64,000 bases of DNA, taken from positions 1,153 through 65,152 of the forward strand of contig JAGVHG010000106.1 of assembly GCA_020056715.1 (NCBI GenBank). Reading direction: 5' to 3'. The notes beneath the pieces were generated by a model. The model ran no database searches. It had not been told where the DNA came from and worked only from the letters and a program-made list of their open reading frames with translations. Positions 1,412 to 9,184 of this stretch are shown in pieces. The first letter of the stretch is position 1. The number at the start of each line of letters is the position of its first letter. The DNA is from Phycisphaerae bacterium. GTDB taxonomy: Bacteria > Planctomycetota > Phycisphaerae > UBA1845. A program made the translations under genes and the position numbers.

Positions 1412-2392
1412 TCAGGTAGCAACGGCTGAAAAGTCGTCGTTTGTCGACCCGGGATGGTCGTCGGTTGGGGGAGTCAAGGCCATCGGGTCGATGAGGTTAG
1501 GCTCAATTCGAAATTGCGGCGCCAGGCCCATGACGGCTTCGACCATCGTTCGCTCTACCGGGATGCCGATCCGTTTCATCCGTCGGACCCGGCGGCGACG
1601 AACGCTCAGTTGCATCAGGGCCGAAGTGCCGTTGGGGTCTTCGCGCAGGAGAGGCGAACGGGGCCCATCGGTCAGGATCGACTGAATGCGGTCCAGGGAC
1701 TCGCTTCGATAACCGGCCATCAATTCCGGCGATAAATCCCACCGCGAAAGTCGACCCCACAGATGCACCGTTCGCCGGAAGCCTTGCCGAACGGTCACGG
1801 CGTTTATCCGGTCGAACAGCCGCCGGTTGAAATCATAGGGCAGAAACGTGTCGGTAATATGACGCCCCATGGCCGTGTGATGATCGCGGTGGTCGCCGGC
1901 GATGATCTGCTCGAGCAGCGCCCAAGTCGACTCCGACTGCGTGGCGTCCGCGCGAATCTCCCAATAGAAGTGGCCGAAGTTAACCGAACTGTCGCAAACC
2001 GCGATCTGGCGAGGAACGAACTTGCCGTGGGCAACCGTGTCGGCTGCGAGATGCGAAAGATAGCCATACGCGAAGGCTGCGGCCCGGTCATCTTCAGCGC
2101 TCTCCAGCAATCCAAACCCAGTCGACCAATGATGGCAGAATTGTTTGACGCGACTCCAGCGTTTAGCGAAGACGATGTCGGCGGCGATGTTGCCGTAGAT
2201 ATAGGCGATGCCGTTTCGAGCAAGGATCGCGGCAATCGCGGCGGGCATGATGGCGAGGCGCTCTAGGATTGAACCGGCAAGTTCGATATGCGTGGCCGGT
2301 CCCCATGCTAGGGCGAAGTCCGCGCAGCCCAACATGACGACCAGAAACAGGAAGACCGTCCGAAAACTTAGTCGCATTAGCCGTACATTCAT
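1412..2392 (-). CDS. Secreted zinc-dependent phospholipase C-like protein (family call from memory)
   Basis: Signal-like N-terminus [18 protein letters not shown], then AWGPATH and [13 protein letters not shown] His-rich motifs. In-frame ATGs at 2392 and 2377; the track start 2497 would add a non-signal leader. Confidence 0.5.
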
Positions 2393-2530
2393 TATCGGCA
2401 GCGCCAATCCGCCGCGCTCACGTAGGTATGGCCGAAACCAAAAGAACCTACACGTATTGTACGTAACGTCGACCGCTTGTGTCGCATGAAAACTCATATT
2501 TGATTGCCATAATCATCCCCCGCCATCGCC

Positions 2531-2558
2531 TTGACAGTGGGCATCGCACGCATAGACT
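2531..2558 (+). promoter_or_regulatory. Sigma70-like promoter candidate for the STAS/kinase pair
   Basis: TTGACA (2531-2536), 16-nt spacer, TAGACT (2553-2558), about 50 nt upstream of the 2610 start. GGGAG lies 8 nt before the ATG. Confidence 0.35.
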
Positions 2559-2609
2559 TTAATGCCTGGACTGTAGATTTCAAGCTCGGCGATCAATGGG
2601 AGCGGCGTC

Positions 2610-2966
2610 ATGGCGGATGAGAAACCTCGCATTTCCGTGAAGAACTCCGGCGGCGTTAACATCGTCGAGTTCGCGGATCGAAAAATCCTTGAGGAGCTTT
2701 CGATCTCCGAAATCGGTGAAGAACTCGCTAGGGTCGCGACGGGAATGGGTGACGTGAAGATGTTGCTCAGCTTCAAGAACGTGGAGCACTTGTCGAGCGC
2801 GGCCTTGGGGATGCTGATTAAGCTCAACAAGCAGGTGGCTGAGAAAAAGGGTCAACTGAAGCTCTCCGACATCAGTCCCCCGATTTACGAGGTGTTCAAG
2901 ATCACCCGGTTGTACAAGCTGTTTAGCATTTACGGCACAGCCAGGGAGGCTTTGGCCGACTTCTAG
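2610..2966 (+). CDS. STAS-domain anti-sigma-factor antagonist (SpoIIAA/RsbV-like)
   Basis: 118 aa of STAS-typical length. The conserved phospho-Ser context is [16 protein letters not shown], and the C-terminal [12 protein letters not shown] helix is present. Confidence 0.8.
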
Positions 2967-3018
2967 AGCGCTTTACGAAACATCCCGCCCGGCGCGACGG
3001 CGCAGCTTGATTCATGCC

Positions 3019-3750
3019 ATGACCGCAGTTAATCCCGACAACGAAGCGACGTTCATCGTGTGCGTCGTCAAGAGCGATCTGCGAGAGACGTGCGTCCCAA
3101 AACAGGCCATCATTACGGAACTAGAGCGGTGTTGTTACAGCGACGATGCGGTGTTCGCGGTCCAGCTCGCCCTCGAGGAAGCGTTAGCCAACGCCGTCAA
3201 GCATGGGAACCGTAACGACGCGGGCAAGAGTGTCACCGTCCGATACGCCGTGAACGAGGACAAAGCCGTCGTCGTGGTGCGTGATGAGGGCGGTGGGTTC
3301 CTGCCCTATGACGTCCCCGATTGCACCGCGCCTGATCGGCTCCCACTTCCCAACGGCCGGGGTATCATGCTGATCCGTGCCTATATGGATGAGGTGTGCT
3401 TCCGCGACCGTGGCCGCGAGGTGTACTTCGTGAAACGCCGCGCGTCGGCCACCCCGGCTGCCTTGACCAAGCGGGCACGTAACATCCGACGTACGATCTG
3501 CTTTTCAGGAACCGTACAGGGCGTGGGATTCCGCTACACCACCTGCGACATCGCCTCAAAGTTCCGCGTGAAGGGTTTCATCCGCAACCTGCCCGATGGC
3601 CGGGTCGAGCTGGTCGCCGAGGGACGCGAAATCGACCTTGACCGCTTCCAATGCGCGGTCGAGGAGGCGATGTGCGGCCATATCAGCGACGTCGCCGCTA
3701 CCGACAGCGCCGCAACCCACGAGTTCAAAAAGTTCGTAATCGCCTCGTAG
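3019..3750 (+). CDS. RsbW/SpoIIAB-type serine kinase (HATPase_c_2) fused to a C-terminal acylphosphatase domain
   Basis: Kinase N-box [13 protein letters not shown] and G-boxes RDEGGGF and NGRGIMLI. The C-terminal ~90 aa carry both acylphosphatase signatures, [10 protein letters not shown] and [20 protein letters not shown] at 3019; the track start 3007 is a TTG. Confidence 0.8.
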
Positions 3751-3777
3751 AAGCGATTCGATTCCCGCGTCACGCCC

Positions 3778-4722
3778 TTAAAAACGAACTTTGAAAACCG
3801 GTGCGAGAATCAACGCAGCGACCATGGACACGATGAAGAAGGTCACGACCCAATAATCCGCGCCGCGAACCCACGAATCCACGCTGGGATAAAGGATCTC
3901 GATGGATCGAACCGGCGCCCCAGCCGCTAGACGGCGCTCCACGGGATGGAACAACTGCTCGGTCCATCTCGCGTTCGGACGCAGCGCGCTCACCCGCTCG
4001 AACCCGTCGCCGACGACAAGCTCCTTCTCCAGGGTCTCGCCGGCGACATGAAATTTGAGAGTGTGTCGGCCGGGTACGCCGCCGTGAATTCGCCAGACCC
4101 ATAGATCCCCGCCCGGCACCGGGCCGACCTCAACTACCATACCCGGATGCGGTTCGATCGAAACTTCGACCGACTTTCCGGCGCCCGGTGCGAAAGACAT
4201 CTTGATGAGCGTCTGTTCGCCCGATCGAAGGGGCCGCCATTGATAGCGTATACCCATCTGCGCCAGGGCCAGCATCATGGGCAGCGCCATCACCAACACC
4301 GGCGTCAAAACGTATCGTTGTAGTCGTACGATCGCCCACAGAAGTCGGGCCTGCGATAGAAACGTGATCCGAAGCTCATCTTTGTAGAGCTTCAGAGCGA
4401 GCAGGTTGGCCTTGATGTCGTCTTTGACCTTGCCGATCGCCTTCTGGTTGGAGGTGTGGCGAAACGCGATCAACATCACCACGCCGGTTACGGCCGAAAT
4501 CACGGTGAGTCCGACCCAAACGGGAAACGGACTCAGCACGGCGTACACGACATCGCCGAGCCACGTGCAAATCGGGTTCAAGAACGCCAGGAGTGGTGAG
4601 AGAATGGGGTTCAGGATCGCGTCGAGCGAGCCCCAAAGCCATCCGAAAAACGTGGAGAGTATGTCCCAGACCCAAAGGACGACCTCGGCTCCGTAAATCA
4701 GCACCGAGTTGACGAAGTCCAT
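3778..4722 (-). CDS. Integral membrane protein, unknown function
   Basis: Several hydrophobic helices in the N-terminal half, a soluble-looking middle region and a C-terminal TM (YWVVTFFIVSMVAALILAPVF). It is the last gene of the 9184->3778 same-strand block. Confidence 0.6.
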   Translation of the reverse strand: MDFVNSVLIYGAEVVLWVWDILSTFFGWLWGSLDAILNPILSPLLAFLNPICTWLGDVVYAVLSPFPVWVGLTVISAVTGVVMLIAFRHTSNQKAIGKVKDDIKANLLALKLYKDELRITFLSQARLLWAIVRLQRYVLTPVLVMALPMMLALAQMGIRYQWRPLRSGEQTLIKMSFAPGAGKSVEVSIEPHPGMVVEVGPVPGGDLWVWRIHGGVPGRHTLKFHVAGETLEKELVVGDGFERVSALRPNARWTEQLFHPVERRLAAGAPVRSIEILYPSVDSWVRGADYWVVTFFIVSMVAALILAPVFKVRF

Positions 4723-4761
4723 GGCCGGTTCCTGAAACGATCGCCGCCGAAATCACGGTAA

Positions 4762-4956
4762 CTATTCGATGTAACCCAATCCGCGAAGCCGTTCGGTCAC
4801 GTCCGCGTCGGAATCCGCCGACTCCAAAACCGATAGCTCCTTCTCGATCACGTGAATCAAGAACTCCTCCGGTGAGGCGTATCCCGCTTTCTCGGAGATT
4901 TTCTTGACTCGTTCGTAAAGATTCGCCTCGATCTTGATCTTAGACATCGTCGTCAC
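4762..4956 (-). CDS. Small ribbon-helix-helix-like protein
   Basis: 64 aa. SKIKIEANLYERVKKISEKAGYASPEEFLIHVIEKEL fits a beta-alpha-alpha RHH pattern. Its start overlaps the upstream gene's stop by 4 nt. Confidence 0.5.
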   Translation of the reverse strand: MTTMSKIKIEANLYERVKKISEKAGYASPEEFLIHVIEKELSVLESADSDADVTERLRGLGYIE

Positions 4957-7007
4957 TCCTTAGCTGCGGCGTTCGTAACCCCTGCCGTCACGGGCTTGAA
5001 CAAGCTCTTCCCCTTCATCACCTCCGGAACCGGTATGGCAAACTCCTCGAGGATAGTAGGCGCGAGATCGATCAACGATGGAGCGCCATGAAGAATCGGT
5101 CGATTGCTGAAAATCACGCCTGGCACTTGATCGGCGGCGATGCAGTGGTCGGCGCTCCACTCCGAATCGTTTTTCGAGATCACCTCGTCCTCAAGGTCGC
5201 CCTGCGTAGTGGCCCACGAGGCACGGTATCCGCGGTTATAGCCGATGACGAGGTCCGGTCCCGTCGCGGCAAACGGACCACTGTACACCTTATCGCTACG
5301 ATAAACTTCCGCGATCACGGGTTGACCGTCCAGCGGATCGCGGACGGCCAACAGCTTGCCGCGAATCTCCTCCAACAAAGCCTCCCGTTCGCTCGGCTCG
5401 ACGATCCCATCCCGTTCGCGCCCCCGCAGGTTCAAATACAGACCGTTCAATCCCATCCCGTAGGCCCTCGTTCGCGCCCAGTCAACAAGACGTCCGGCAC
5501 CGGGATTGAGTAGACTTCCGCAATTGCCGGGGCCCAAATACCCTTGATCCCTTAACCACGTATTCACATTGAACTGCCGTCGGAAGTTGCAAAAACCATG
5601 ATCGGACATCACAAGAATGGTGGCCTTCGACCCATAGCGATCCACAACACTGCCTACCACTTTGTCCATTTCGACGTAGAGGTCCTCGATCACGCCGTTG
5701 AAACGCCGTGCGCTCTCCGGCGAACGAGTCGGATGTGGTTCGTCCCCTTCCCACCAGAACATGTGCGCTTGAAGGTCCGTGCTTGAAAAGTAAAAGAATA
5801 ACAGGCCATCGCGATAGTTTTCCATCGCATAGTGCAACAACTGCATCCGCTCCTTCAAAACATAGCGCACCTGTTGAAGATATTCTTCGTCCTGAAAAAC
5901 ATGATTGGACAAGGCTTTATGATCTTCCTGAAAGCCGGTTGTATAAAAGAGACCCAGGGCTTTCGTAAGTTTAGTGATAAAATCGGGAGGCTCCGTAATC
6001 CGTTGATCACCCGGATCGGATGGGTCGATGTTGATCGGCGTAACGTAGAGGCGGAATATCGGCCGCACTTGCTGCAGGTAAAAGCGACATATACCGCTCA
6101 CGTGGGTGTTGGGCAGGAATGACGGCATGTCTAACTCGTAGTCGACCTTGCACCAATCGCTCCATTCGCCCTCCTTGAGGACGATCACTTGGTCTTGAAG
6201 TTCAATCCGTGCATTCGGCTCCTGTGGGTGCCGGTAAACCTGGAACGGCACCGAGGCTTTCACAGACTTCATGAGTGCAGTGTTCTCCGGACCGATGAGG
6301 CTCGACTTGGCGAAGTTGTCTTGGAAGATGAGCGGCTTACGATACCCGCCCGGCTCTTCCAACGAGCGGATGGTATCGCTTACAAAATACTGATACGTGC
6401 CATATCCCCCAAGCAGGTCCGGCACACCCATTCCCGCAAGACAACACATGTGTCCGTGATGCGAGGGACTTGGCGGATAATTGGAGGGAATGTCATAGAT
6501 GCGTATGGGAATACCGGCCTCGTCCAGGTAATCCCAGAAGGGGGTCCCGTTACGTTTAAGGAGAGTCTGAGTGGGATTGTGACTGAACGGCCAGAAAGTG
6601 AGAGGGAGCTTATGCTTTCCGACCTCCCACCCATCATCACTGTGGATAGTCTCGGCGGCGGAGTAGTACGGCTCACACTGCTTCGCCGGGTTACGGTGGA
6701 TGAAATCGAAAATTCCGTGGACGCCCGCATCGGCGCCGGTGATGAAGTTCGACCATGCGACCGGACTTTGCGGCGGGATACTGGTGCCCAGGTGTCGATA
6801 GCCTCCCGCATCGCGTAATTGCGCCAAACGTGGGAGCCGGCCCTGATTCATAAGGCGTTCACACAGACGCGGGTCCATTCCATCAAATCCGAGGATGATC
6901 AGTTGGGGGTGCTCATTCGTGTTCCGGTGGCATGAGGAAAACGCTGCACCGGCTAGCAGTAGCGCCGCCGGGACGGAGGTTGCTTGTAGGAATCGGTAAC
7001 TTTTCAT
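4953..7007 (-). CDS. Alkaline-phosphatase-superfamily protein (type I phosphodiesterase/nucleotide pyrophosphatase family), probable lipoprotein
   Basis: Motifs ILGFDGMDPRL, PPQSPVAWSNFITGADAGVHGI and VMSDHGF. N-terminus is ...LLLAGAAFSSC. Paralog of the next gene. Confidence 0.8.
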   Translation of the reverse strand: MKSYRFLQATSVPAALLLAGAAFSSCHRNTNEHPQLIILGFDGMDPRLCERLMNQGRLPRLAQLRDAGGYRHLGTSIPPQSPVAWSNFITGADAGVHGIFDFIHRNPAKQCEPYYSAAETIHSDDGWEVGKHKLPLTFWPFSHNPTQTLLKRNGTPFWDYLDEAGIPIRIYDIPSNYPPSPSHHGHMCCLAGMGVPDLLGGYGTYQYFVSDTIRSLEEPGGYRKPLIFQDNFAKSSLIGPENTALMKSVKASVPFQVYRHPQEPNARIELQDQVIVLKEGEWSDWCKVDYELDMPSFLPNTHVSGICRFYLQQVRPIFRLYVTPINIDPSDPGDQRITEPPDFITKLTKALGLFYTTGFQEDHKALSNHVFQDEEYLQQVRYVLKERMQLLHYAMENYRDGLLFFYFSSTDLQAHMFWWEGDEPHPTRSPESARRFNGVIEDLYVEMDKVVGSVVDRYGSKATILVMSDHGFCNFRRQFNVNTWLRDQGYLGPGNCGSLLNPGAGRLVDWARTRAYGMGLNGLYLNLRGRERDGIVEPSEREALLEEIRGKLLAVRDPLDGQPVIAEVYRSDKVYSGPFAATGPDLVIGYNRGYRASWATTQGDLEDEVISKNDSEWSADHCIAADQVPGVIFSNRPILHGAPSLIDLAPTILEEFAIPVPEVMKGKSLFKPVTAGVTNAAAKE

Positions 7008-9184
7008 CCCGAAGTGATCGCGTCCGCCTTTATTACGCCGCGCCGCGCGATACGACCCTTGCCGTTCTTAGAGAAACCCGGCGCTTCCGCAACCGTCAGC
7101 GGCCGCCCGTCCATCACCGCGGGTATTTCCACGCCGAACATATCGAGCACGGTGGGACCGATGTCCATCAGGCGCGGCTGCGGACTGTCAATTTTACGAT
7201 TGCAGAATAGGACGCCCGGAACAAGCGATGGATCGATACAGTGATCTCCGCTCCAAGCCTTCGCATTGTCATGGAATACGCGATCGGTCGATTGCCCGAT
7301 CGCCGCCTCCCACGACACGCGGTAACCCCGGTTGTATCCGAGAATGATATCCGGCGCGTCCACAGTGTATGGACCATGGTAAATCTTGTGGGCATTGAAC
7401 GCACGATGCACTGCGATCTCCTTCTTCTCACCGTCCCGCAAGCCGGTCAGCTTCTCACACAGTTCATCGCGAAGCCTATCGGCGTCAGAAGGATCGACGA
7501 TACCCTGAGCTTCCCTGCCTTTGACGTTCAGCCAAATGCCCGCAAGACCCAAGCAAAAGGCTTTCGTCTTCGACCAGTCCACTCCGCCGAGATATTTCTT
7601 CCCCCGTCCATCTGGAAGCAGCGTCAAATACCCGTTCTGCTCAAGCCATACATTCCAGTCAATCCCCCTTCGAAATGAATTAAATCCATGATCGGAGATT
7701 ACCATGAGCACTGTGTCATTGCGCTCACATGCTTTCATCGTCCGCCCGACCAAATCATCCATGCGTACGTACAGTTCTTCGATGGCCTTGCGGTGTTGTC
7801 GGCCGGCCTGTCCGGTGTGCGCGGGATGCTCCGGATCAATGTAACGCCAGAACATATGTTGAATCCGGTCCGTCCCGTCGAACACACACACGCACAGTCC
7901 GCGGCTCACCTTGTCCAACGCGTCGAAGAACATGCGCTCGCGCTCAGAGTCGGCTTCGAGGCATTGATGCAGAAAGCCCTCATCGTCAAGGATTTTGGCA
8001 TTCAGTCCCCATGTATCCTCCGCCAGACCCAATGTCGCGTACAGTCCCTGCTTCTTCGACAAATACATGGAATACACCGACGGGTGGGAAATGGGCATGG
8101 CCGGCTTGTCCGGGTGTATCTGGATCGGTGTTACATACAGGTCGAACTCCGGCTCCGTGTCGATCAACAAGAATTCGCAGATACCTTTGATCTTAATCCC
8201 CGGTCCTGCCTTGAATTCGACGGTAACCCAGGGTGTGTAATTACCCTTTGTCAAAGATATCCGCTCGCCACAAATATCCAATGTCGCCCGGCCTTGACCG
8301 GTTACCGTAATCTCAAATGGGCAACGCATCGCCCCGCCGTTGTCGACCAGTTCATTAGGAGGCCCGACCAAATGGGACCGAATCCTGTTACCTTCACGAG
8401 CCACCCGGATCTGCTCGCCACCGATGTAGTCCTCCTCCACACTAGCGCGCGTCGAGTAATAAGAAAATGTCCCCTGACTGCCCCGCAAATCTGGGACGCA
8501 CATGGCCGACAACAATACCCCGCGAAAACTCTCTGGCGGGAACGTTATCGGAACACGAATCACATTACTGAAAATCCCATGCGCCCCAAGGGTGTTCCAA
8601 AATGGTTTCCCCTTTCGCAACAACCGGATATCCGGCTTTCCGATCGGTATCTTGTATCGACCGATCTTCCATACCCGCGACGCGCCGCGGATACTGACGG
8701 ACGACAACAGCGGCATGTAGGTCCGCTTATCGCGGGTGAGAAAATCAAAAATGTTATGCTTCCCTGGGTTGCAACCGGTCAGGAACGTCGACCAGGCGAC
8801 CGGGGAAAGCGGCGGCGCCGTGGTCGCAAGCCGCGAGTACGTCCCCGTCTCGGCCAACTTACGGAGGTTGGGCATTTTTCCCTCGGCCATGTACTTGTCG
8901 GCGAGCGTCGGCTCCATCCCATCCAAGCCGAGGATGACAAACCGTTTCACCCGTGCCCGCGCCAGGGCACGGCGACCGCGAATAAACCGAATCGTCCAGC
9001 GTAAGGGCCAAAGAAATATGGCCGCTAGGCCCGAAAGGAACGCCGCGAAGAAAGCGACGAGCGTAGTCCCCACCGCAAAGCCGGCGCCCGGACCGATGTA
9101 CGCCTGCGCCTCACCAGCAGCGAGCAGGAGTGCAAACGCCGCAAGCGCGACGATCCGCAGACCAGGATGTCGGTTCGGTAACAT
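7004..9184 (-). CDS. Alkaline-phosphatase-superfamily protein (phosphodiesterase/nucleotide pyrophosphatase family), membrane-anchored paralog
   Basis: Two N-terminal TM helices, then ILGLDGMEPTL, PPLSPVAWSTFLTGCNPGKHNI and VISDHGF. Overlaps the downstream paralog by 4 nt. Confidence 0.8.
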   Translation of the reverse strand: MLPNRHPGLRIVALAAFALLLAAGEAQAYIGPGAGFAVGTTLVAFFAAFLSGLAAIFLWPLRWTIRFIRGRRALARARVKRFVILGLDGMEPTLADKYMAEGKMPNLRKLAETGTYSRLATTAPPLSPVAWSTFLTGCNPGKHNIFDFLTRDKRTYMPLLSSVSIRGASRVWKIGRYKIPIGKPDIRLLRKGKPFWNTLGAHGIFSNVIRVPITFPPESFRGVLLSAMCVPDLRGSQGTFSYYSTRASVEEDYIGGEQIRVAREGNRIRSHLVGPPNELVDNGGAMRCPFEITVTGQGRATLDICGERISLTKGNYTPWVTVEFKAGPGIKIKGICEFLLIDTEPEFDLYVTPIQIHPDKPAMPISHPSVYSMYLSKKQGLYATLGLAEDTWGLNAKILDDEGFLHQCLEADSERERMFFDALDKVSRGLCVCVFDGTDRIQHMFWRYIDPEHPAHTGQAGRQHRKAIEELYVRMDDLVGRTMKACERNDTVLMVISDHGFNSFRRGIDWNVWLEQNGYLTLLPDGRGKKYLGGVDWSKTKAFCLGLAGIWLNVKGREAQGIVDPSDADRLRDELCEKLTGLRDGEKKEIAVHRAFNAHKIYHGPYTVDAPDIILGYNRGYRVSWEAAIGQSTDRVFHDNAKAWSGDHCIDPSLVPGVLFCNRKIDSPQPRLMDIGPTVLDMFGVEIPAVMDGRPLTVAEAPGFSKNGKGRIARRGVIKADAITSG

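Follow-up and report, generated by a model that had tools for sequence, protein, structure and literature searches.

An RsbW-type kinase fused to an acylphosphatase in Phycisphaerae, and the split operon to which the fusion belongs

A 64,000-nucleotide (nt) stretch of the genome of a Phycisphaerae bacterium (contig JAGVHG010000106.1, positions 1,153 to 65,152 of the forward strand; this whole stretch is called the window here) carries a gene that joins a partner-switching kinase of the RsbW/SpoIIAB type to an acylphosphatase (AcP), directly downstream of a gene for a STAS-domain protein. We find that the fusion is a conserved protein family and also the fused form of an operon seen in several families of the Phycisphaerae, and because it is both, the case that partner switching and acylphosphatase are truly linked in function is strengthened. 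The reading that we favour, tentatively and at a little short of an even chance, is that AcP is an enzymatic or alternative partner, or the output, of a partner switch that works without a sigma factor. What is new here is the joining of a previously unconnected enzyme, acylphosphatase, to a known kind of sigma-less partner switch. The genes and domains in question are listed below; residue numbers refer to the 247-amino-acid (aa) open reading frame (ORF) at 3007-3750 (+) unless they are marked as model residues.

2610-2966, + strand: STAS-domain protein, 118 aa, putative kinase antagonist and substrate (ORF and Pfam STAS)
3019-3750, + strand: kinase-AcP fusion gene, 243 aa from its ATG (ORF, Pfam, and orthologs)
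3124-3435, + strand: HATPase_c_2 kinase domain, residues 40-143, with N-box, G1, and G2 (Pfam, 2.3e-22)
3436-3486, + strand: inter-domain linker, predicted to be flexible (low model confidence and ortholog comparison)
3496-3741, + strand: acylphosphatase domain, residues 164-245 (Pfam, 9.1e-18)

Read from a TTG at 3007, the fusion ORF has 247 aa. Because the 76 fused orthologs without exception have their first residue at the position of M5, i.e., the ATG at 3019, the gene most likely starts there and comprises 3019-3750, with 243 aa. This ATG is 52 nt past the STAS stop codon, in agreement with the spacing of about 50 nt given in the original prediction. A search of 5.8 billion proteins, in which a protein was counted as fused if both Pfam domains were present, returned 76 protein clusters carrying the kinase-AcP fusion, with 47 to 93% identity and a length of about 243 aa. 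The next matches after these are kinases of about 142 aa without AcP, about 70% identical over the kinase half. Among 1.84 billion representatives at 50% identity, the full-length fused architecture forms one cluster only, and by this clustering the fusion therefore belongs to one fairly narrow lineage. Of the 33 genomes sampled from the window's family, 6 have an uninterrupted fused frame (the window's own genome, G474, G486, G498, G502, and G506). In a 151-genome sample of the order, fused frames are restricted to this family, and none was found in a 400-genome sample of the phylum. A stop or frameshift splitting the ORF had been named as what would undo the original prediction; the frame contains neither, and the same fused frame recurs in independent assemblies. 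A sequencing or assembly artefact is ruled out by the 76 clusters from independent sources, together with the five other genomes of the family.

The N-terminal half matches HATPase_c_2 (PF13581) over residues 40-143 with 79.8 bits (2.3e-22; cut-off, 27.4). The N-box and G-boxes originally read in this half are borne out by their invariance in 32 fused orthologs of 49 to 93% identity, namely E57, E58, N62, H66, G67, and N68 in the N-box, D93, G95, G97, and F98 in G1, and G117, R118, and G119 in G2. Since its scores against the NCBIfam RsbW equivalog models (37 to 41 bits) are far under their cut-offs (145 to 155), the kinase is, by profile comparison, a member of the RsbW/SpoIIAB-type family and not an RsbW ortholog. 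The AlphaFold2 (AF2) model of this half matches the fold of RsbW (6m36 and 6m37) and SpoIIAB (1til and 1l0o) in Foldseek, with template modelling (TM) scores of 0.85-0.9 on the target. Public source labels of the fused proteins read only “ATP-binding protein” or “serine/threonine-protein kinase RsbW.”

The STAS protein scores 39.3 bits with Pfam STAS (5.9e-10; cut-off, 22.6) and 45.9 bits with TIGR00377, the latter under the cut-off of 53.45. Its HLSSAALG stretch, proposed in the original prediction as a phosphoserine context, is well conserved: S62 and S63 are invariant among 80 STAS orthologs, and the surrounding motif F-x-N-V-[ED]-H-L-S-S-A-A-L-G is nearly unchanged. Ser63 (codon 2796-2798) shares its alignment column with the phosphorylated residue of TM1442, the serine of the DSAGLG motif in that protein, and chains of SpoIIAA and RsbV in the Protein Data Bank also match the STAS protein. 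Ser63 is the putative phospho-site. The STAS gene lies upstream of the kinase in 79 of 80 related loci.

The C-terminal half matches Acylphosphatase (PF00708) over residues 164-245 with 64.8 bits (9.1e-18; cut-off, 22.5), so the domain assignment made originally stands; scores against the NCBIfam equivalog models are 36 to 58 bits, under their cut-offs of 89 to 131. The P-loop reads GTVQGVGFR. Both catalytic residues that the original prediction had singled out for checking are kept, Arg176 (codon 3532-3534) and Asn194 in FIRN (codon 3586-3588). Across 70 fused or operon-linked AcPs, the signature residues G168, V170, Q171, G172, V173, F175, and R176 are invariant, as is N194, and the catalytic residues align with those of the Bacillus subtilis and Pyrococcus horikoshii enzymes. 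Together, STAS, kinase, and AcP all look catalytically competent, judged from their conserved residues and the predicted structure.

The AF2 model, built on a 77-sequence alignment, has a predicted local distance difference test (pLDDT) value of 88.4, with both domains above 90. Its AcP half shows the order of strands (E) and helices (H) E-H-E-E-H-E-E of a ferredoxin-like fold, likewise at pLDDT >90, and matches the acylphosphatases 4ojh, 3br8, and 2bjd with TM 0.85-0.89 and a root mean square deviation of ~1.6 Å (Foldseek). No solved structure in the Foldseek search spans a kinase and an AcP together. The linker has a pLDDT of at most 62, falling below 50 at model residues 149-152, and is poorly defined at model residues ~141-155; among orthologs it is 16 to 35 aa long and variable in length and sequence. 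A fixed intramolecular docking of AcP on the kinase was considered and finds no support in the AF2 model, with its predicted TM score (pTM) of 0.57 and disordered linker. The suggestion of the original prediction that AcP serves as a dimerisation module is disfavoured, as is a purely structural role, by the invariance of the catalytic residues and by the orthology of this AcP with the one that stands alone in sister families.

A side observation on the linker is a cysteine cluster (CC, CCC, CxC, or CCxC) in 18 of 77 fused orthologs (P0018-P0022, P0025, P0026, P0028, P0029, P0033, P0036, P0043, P0053, P0058, P0061, P0066, P0070, and P0076), which the linker of the window's protein does not have. 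Paired Cys-rich linkers in a kinase dimer could form a metal or redox site.

Beyond the fused proteins, species-representative genomes contain 441 related loci, of which we compared the best 80 by scanning them with hidden Markov models of the kinase and AcP halves; since they were ranked by the fused query, this set is biased toward AcP-linked loci. All but two are labelled as metagenome-assembled genomes (MAGs) of Phycisphaerae or Planctomycetota. Thirteen loci are fused, 56 are split into a kinase gene and an AcP gene of the same strand, and 11 have a kinase without AcP nearby. In the split loci the median distance from the kinase stop to the AcP start is 21 nt, with 15 nt or less in 24 of the 56 and an overlap in 10, and the AcP genes have their own ATG a few codons past the kinase stop. 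The kinase stops are a mix of TGA, TAA, and TAG, and the three relative reading frames are about equally frequent (20, 17, and 19 of 56), which, together with the AcP's own ATG, rules out selenocysteine insertion or programmed readthrough. The linker of the fused protein corresponds to the kinase stop, the spacer, and the AcP N terminus of the split genes, and in many split loci one point mutation at the stop would interconvert the two forms. The fusion is derived from an operon of the order STAS-kinase-(STAS2)-AcP, where STAS2 is a second STAS gene, by loss of the stop codon between adjacent genes.

The second STAS gene, with the motif FICSLGLG, lies between kinase and AcP in six loci (L057, L062, L063, L065, L082, and L089). 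In addition, we infer the arrangement STAS-kinase-STAS2-AcP from AcP offsets of ~800-900 nt in a further series of genomes (G404, G415, G430, G437, G417, G485, G493, G509, G410, and G411). This four-gene variant occurs in more than one family, several in all, and may predate the form without the second STAS gene. In a tree of the kinases (142 columns), all fused forms fall within one 28-member subclade, where they are interleaved with split forms. The tree is poorly resolved; it suggests up to six changes between fused and split, of which supported branches force no more than one. One locus, L090 (JANQQE010000021.1, a 666-kb contig), is labelled “Alphaproteobacteria bacterium,” carries STAS-kinase-AcP, and nests with the Phycisphaerae loci L087 and L088 in this tree; the MAG is probably mislabelled or mis-binned.

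The frequency of linkage was taken from the 151 genomes sampled without bias from the window's order, with coordinates compared in the 141 for which both genes were listed. Of the 151 genomes, 149 have an ortholog of the kinase and 143 have one of AcP. The AcP gene is located 3' of the kinase gene in 31 of the 141 genomes, across five families, and among the families with this adjacency kinase identities go down to ~45-50%. Offsets between kinase and AcP are mainly ~455-530 nt, as expected for adjacent or fused genes, or ~800-900 nt, a spacing that leaves room for another gene in between, for instance the second STAS; a single offset is 627 nt. The counts by family are as follows.

f1 (the window's family): linked in 20 of the 31 genomes with both genes found
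f108: linked in 4 of 4
f110: linked in 4 of 27
f113: linked in 1 of 1
f114: linked in 2 of 2
f105: linked in 0 of 31
f106: linked in 0 of 7
f107: linked in 0 of 1
f109: linked in 0 of 31
f111: linked in 0 of 1
f112: linked in 0 of 3

The genome of the window (3.83 Mb, 98% complete) encodes only one RsbW-type kinase, all other HATPase_c_2 matches being histidine kinases. It also encodes three single-domain STAS proteins and five PP2C phosphatases, comprising one GAF-PP2C, three FHA-GAF-PP2C, and one small protein, none of them near the locus. The positions of these PP2C and STAS genes are C23:34564-36399, C60:28511-30250, C103:3901-5520, C100:3897-5639, C201:34379-35212; C40:70897-71229; and C81:2673-3287. 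This inventory suggests that several inputs and antagonists converge on the single kinase-AcP protein. Two AcP domains are present, in the fusion and in HypF (on C43), and there is no free AcP. Profile searches found no sigma factor of the SigB/F/G family in the genome. The sigma factors recovered are RpoD, one group-2 RpoS/RpoD-like protein, and ~25 of the ECF type; the group-2-like protein (245 aa, C129:43208-43942) is the only non-ECF alternative sigma factor found and scores 120.8 bits with the SigBFG model, under the cut-off of 234. At the locus itself, the plus-strand pair of STAS and fusion genes sits between two minus-strand genes, a divergent one upstream (1412-2497) and a convergent one downstream (3778-4722). 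Gene calls and the Pfam matches of the neighbours agree with the original prediction that no sigma factor or PP2C gene adjoins the pair.

In the mechanism that we favour, the kinase would phosphorylate Ser63 and thereby inactivate the STAS protein, one or more of the unlinked FHA/GAF-PP2C phosphatases would dephosphorylate it in response to signals, and the dephosphorylated STAS protein would dock on the kinase. AcP would be the alternative partner of the kinase. Binding or tethering to the kinase dimer would limit either how active AcP is or how well substrate reaches it, and docking of STAS would release it, such that the switch would set the level of acyl phosphates such as acetyl phosphate, carbamoyl phosphate, 1,3-bisphosphoglycerate, or aspartyl phosphate; a link to acetyl- or carbamoyl-phosphate pools had been suggested in the original prediction. 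AcP is proposed for this place because it holds the operon position of the sigma factor in rsbV-rsbW-sigB and spoIIAA-spoIIAB-sigF. That it works with the STAS/kinase pair is argued by adjacency in several families, tight or overlapping spacing, fusions that stay intact below 50% identity, and a neighbouring gene that co-varies with the linkage (see below). The genome inventory also counts in favour of the proposal, with its single RsbW-type kinase, its lack of any AcP domain besides the fusion and HypF, and no SigB/F/G sigma factor found, as do the related kinases fused to STAS that are described below. Several points weigh against this proposal. The direction of the kinase-AcP link, as an output, draws on the operon-order parallel, which is an analogy only, and AF2 predicts no fixed docking between kinase and AcP (flexible linker and pTM of 0.57). 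Releasing an acyl-phosphate hydrolase when STAS binds the kinase has no evident energetic logic. If the kinase has a sigma target, the group-2-like sigma factor at C129:43208-43942 is a candidate; proposals for other partner switches include sigma factors that do not belong to the SigB/F/G family. Furthermore, AcP is unlinked in 110 of the 141 genomes of the order, where it is a free-standing gene of ~100 aa, the same ortholog, in variable contexts; these unlinked AcPs score as well against the AcP model as the linked ones, with no obvious specialisation. No conserved gene context was found around the unlinked AcP genes in genomes of the order.

The same linkage and fusion evidence would also fit AcP as an input, in which binding or turnover of an acyl phosphate or phosphate alters the activity of the kinase toward STAS, and the switch reports carbon-overflow or phosphate status to a downstream target of the kinase or of STAS. 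The group-2 alternative sigma factor and the two further STAS proteins could lie downstream in that case, and the divergent phospholipase-like gene described below hints at a phosphate theme. We consider an input role unlikely, as pure sensors often lose their catalytic residues, and here all of these are invariant and identical to those of free-standing orthologs; moreover, sensor domains of signalling kinases are usually N-terminal, whereas AcP is C-terminal or encoded downstream, and AF2 shows no contact between the domains. It is also conceivable that the genes share no more than their expression, a single-copy housekeeping AcP gene having landed 3' of STAS-kinase in one lineage, with stop loss then yielding neutral or nearly neutral fusions of independent halves. 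The unlinked AcP ortholog in most genomes of the order, the likeness of linked and unlinked AcPs, the variable and disordered linker with its low pTM, and the single 50%-identity cluster of fused forms all speak for this, but adjacency is kept in five families with kinase identities down to ~45-50%, the spacing is tight or overlapping, fused ORFs are kept to 47% identity with both active sites intact, and the phospholipase-like gene co-varies with AcP linkage. The kinase tree also speaks against it to the extent of the up to six fused/split changes that it suggests, with at most one forced by supported branches. On balance we regard simple co-expression as distinctly unlikely; if it held, the locus would be an ordinary STAS/kinase pair with a passenger gene. 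Finally, AcP might stand in for the absent adjacent phosphatase and dephosphorylate phospho-STAS, given that no PP2C gene adjoins the pair and that AcP belongs to the same operon, in some loci directly after the second STAS. This is highly improbable on established enzymology, by which acylphosphatases act on carboxyl-phosphate anhydrides and do not cleave the esters of phosphoserine; in the STAS protein the site is always Ser and not Asp or Glu, and four of the five PP2Cs in the genome carry FHA or GAF domains, sensors of the kind that typically feed signals into partner switches. An action of AcP on a PP2C with a receiver (REC) domain, which was also considered, is unsupported in this genome, where the PP2Cs carry FHA and GAF domains and not receiver domains.

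Partner-switching modules are increasingly found to be wired to non-sigma outputs. As in the Bacillus RsbV-RsbW-SigB and SpoIIAA-SpoIIAB-SigF systems, a STAS protein with a phosphorylatable Ser is followed here by a GHKL kinase with the same boxes and fold. The sigB and sigF operons share with the present locus the order antagonist, kinase, third partner; however, the third partner there is a sigma factor, and here it is AcP, fused to the kinase. The two also differ in that no SigB/F/G sigma factor was detected in the window's genome and its phosphatases are unlinked. Sigma-less partner switches are known as BtrU/BtrW/BtrV in Bordetella, SypE/SypA in Vibrio fischeri, RsbU/RsbW/RsbV in Chlamydia, and HsbR/HsbA in Pseudomonas (reviewed in PMC8256260). 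In these, as here, the output of the STAS/kinase module is not a dedicated adjacent sigma factor, but none of them is known to involve an acylphosphatase.

The stand-alone AcPs of B. subtilis (YflL; 2fhm and 3br8), Escherichia coli (YccX; 2gv1), P. horikoshii (1w2i), and Sulfolobus solfataricus (2bjd) have the same ferredoxin-like fold of ~90 residues, the VxGxVQGVxFR loop, and the catalytic Asn. They are single-domain proteins with no known regulator or partner, whereas the AcP described here is tethered to a signalling kinase or, as a separate gene of the operon, co-translated with one. HypF is the single widely known example in which an AcP domain is joined to domains that use ATP. There, the AcP is N-terminal and followed by zinc fingers and YrdC-like and Kae1-like domains, and the protein acts on carbamoyl phosphate in hydrogenase maturation; none of the zinc-finger, YrdC-like, or Kae1-like domains is found by Pfam in the window's fusion, which is thus not of the HypF type. 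A full-text literature search found no link of acylphosphatase with RsbW, STAS, anti-sigma factors, or partner switching, in keeping with the original statement that the architecture was not a described one, and no partner-switch kinase fused to a small-molecule hydrolase was found in the papers searched.

Few small enzymes have been studied as thoroughly as acylphosphatases with regard to folding and structure, yet to our knowledge neither a role in bacteria nor any regulation has been established for them. The operon in its fused and split forms gives a first hint, from genomes, of the way in which regulation of a bacterial acylphosphatase might work. It ties the sole RsbW-type kinase of this lineage to its sole free acylphosphatase and thereby yields a concrete and testable hypothesis, which bears on the control of acetyl phosphate and other high-energy acyl phosphates that drive response-regulator phosphorylation and protein acetylation. 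It is possible, though we hold it to be somewhat doubtful, that this is the first regulated bacterial acylphosphatase, with a phosphorylation-driven switch of STAS, RsbW-type kinase, and FHA/GAF-PP2C inputs that would gate an acyl-phosphate hydrolase posttranslationally. Stress or nutrient signals would then directly reset the pools of one or another of the four acyl phosphates named above, and the same kinase-AcP pairing might act in trans in those Phycisphaerae in which the genes are unlinked.

Two further features lie 5' of the STAS gene.

1412-2497, - strand: Zn-dependent phospholipase-C-like (PLPC-like) protein, 361-aa ORF (Pfam Zn_dep_PLPC, 1.8e-15)
2531-2558, + strand: sigma-70-like promoter match TTGACA-16-TAGACT (consensus match, 10/12)

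The PLPC-like protein has a hydrophobic N-terminal segment. A divergent PLPC-like gene is present 5' of STAS in 45 of the 60 AcP-linked loci with enough upstream sequence versus 0 of the 11 loci that have a kinase but no AcP (Fisher, 3e-6, with no correction for phylogeny), and in 14 loci MetK lies beyond it. Whether the PLPC-like gene is a functional member of the locus is uncertain. The promoter-like match lies within the 112-nt divergent intergenic region between the two genes and is a consensus match only; across 2300-4000, four promoter-like sites were found, with 0.6 expected.

Among switch components, multidomain fusions are common, and the types kinase-STAS, PP2C-kinase, and REC-PP2C-kinase were also observed here. 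In the related kinases P0151 and P0203, the kinase is fused at its C terminus to STAS, its known binding partner, which fits the rule that fusions join interacting proteins. As a separate observation, P0150 (444 aa) combines an RsbW-like kinase with a C-terminal FNR-like oxidoreductase module (NAD_binding_1 and the DHODB Fe-S binding domain), and is possibly an enzyme-coupled partner-switch kinase or else a merge made in gene calling.

Downstream of the fusion gene, the minus-strand block at 3778-9184 contains a polytopic membrane protein without a Pfam match, a short ORF of 64 aa (4762-4956), and a pair of large ORFs (4953-7007 and 7004-9184). The block is kept only in the closest relatives, L011 and L012, and the two large ORFs have a weak match in L050 as well.

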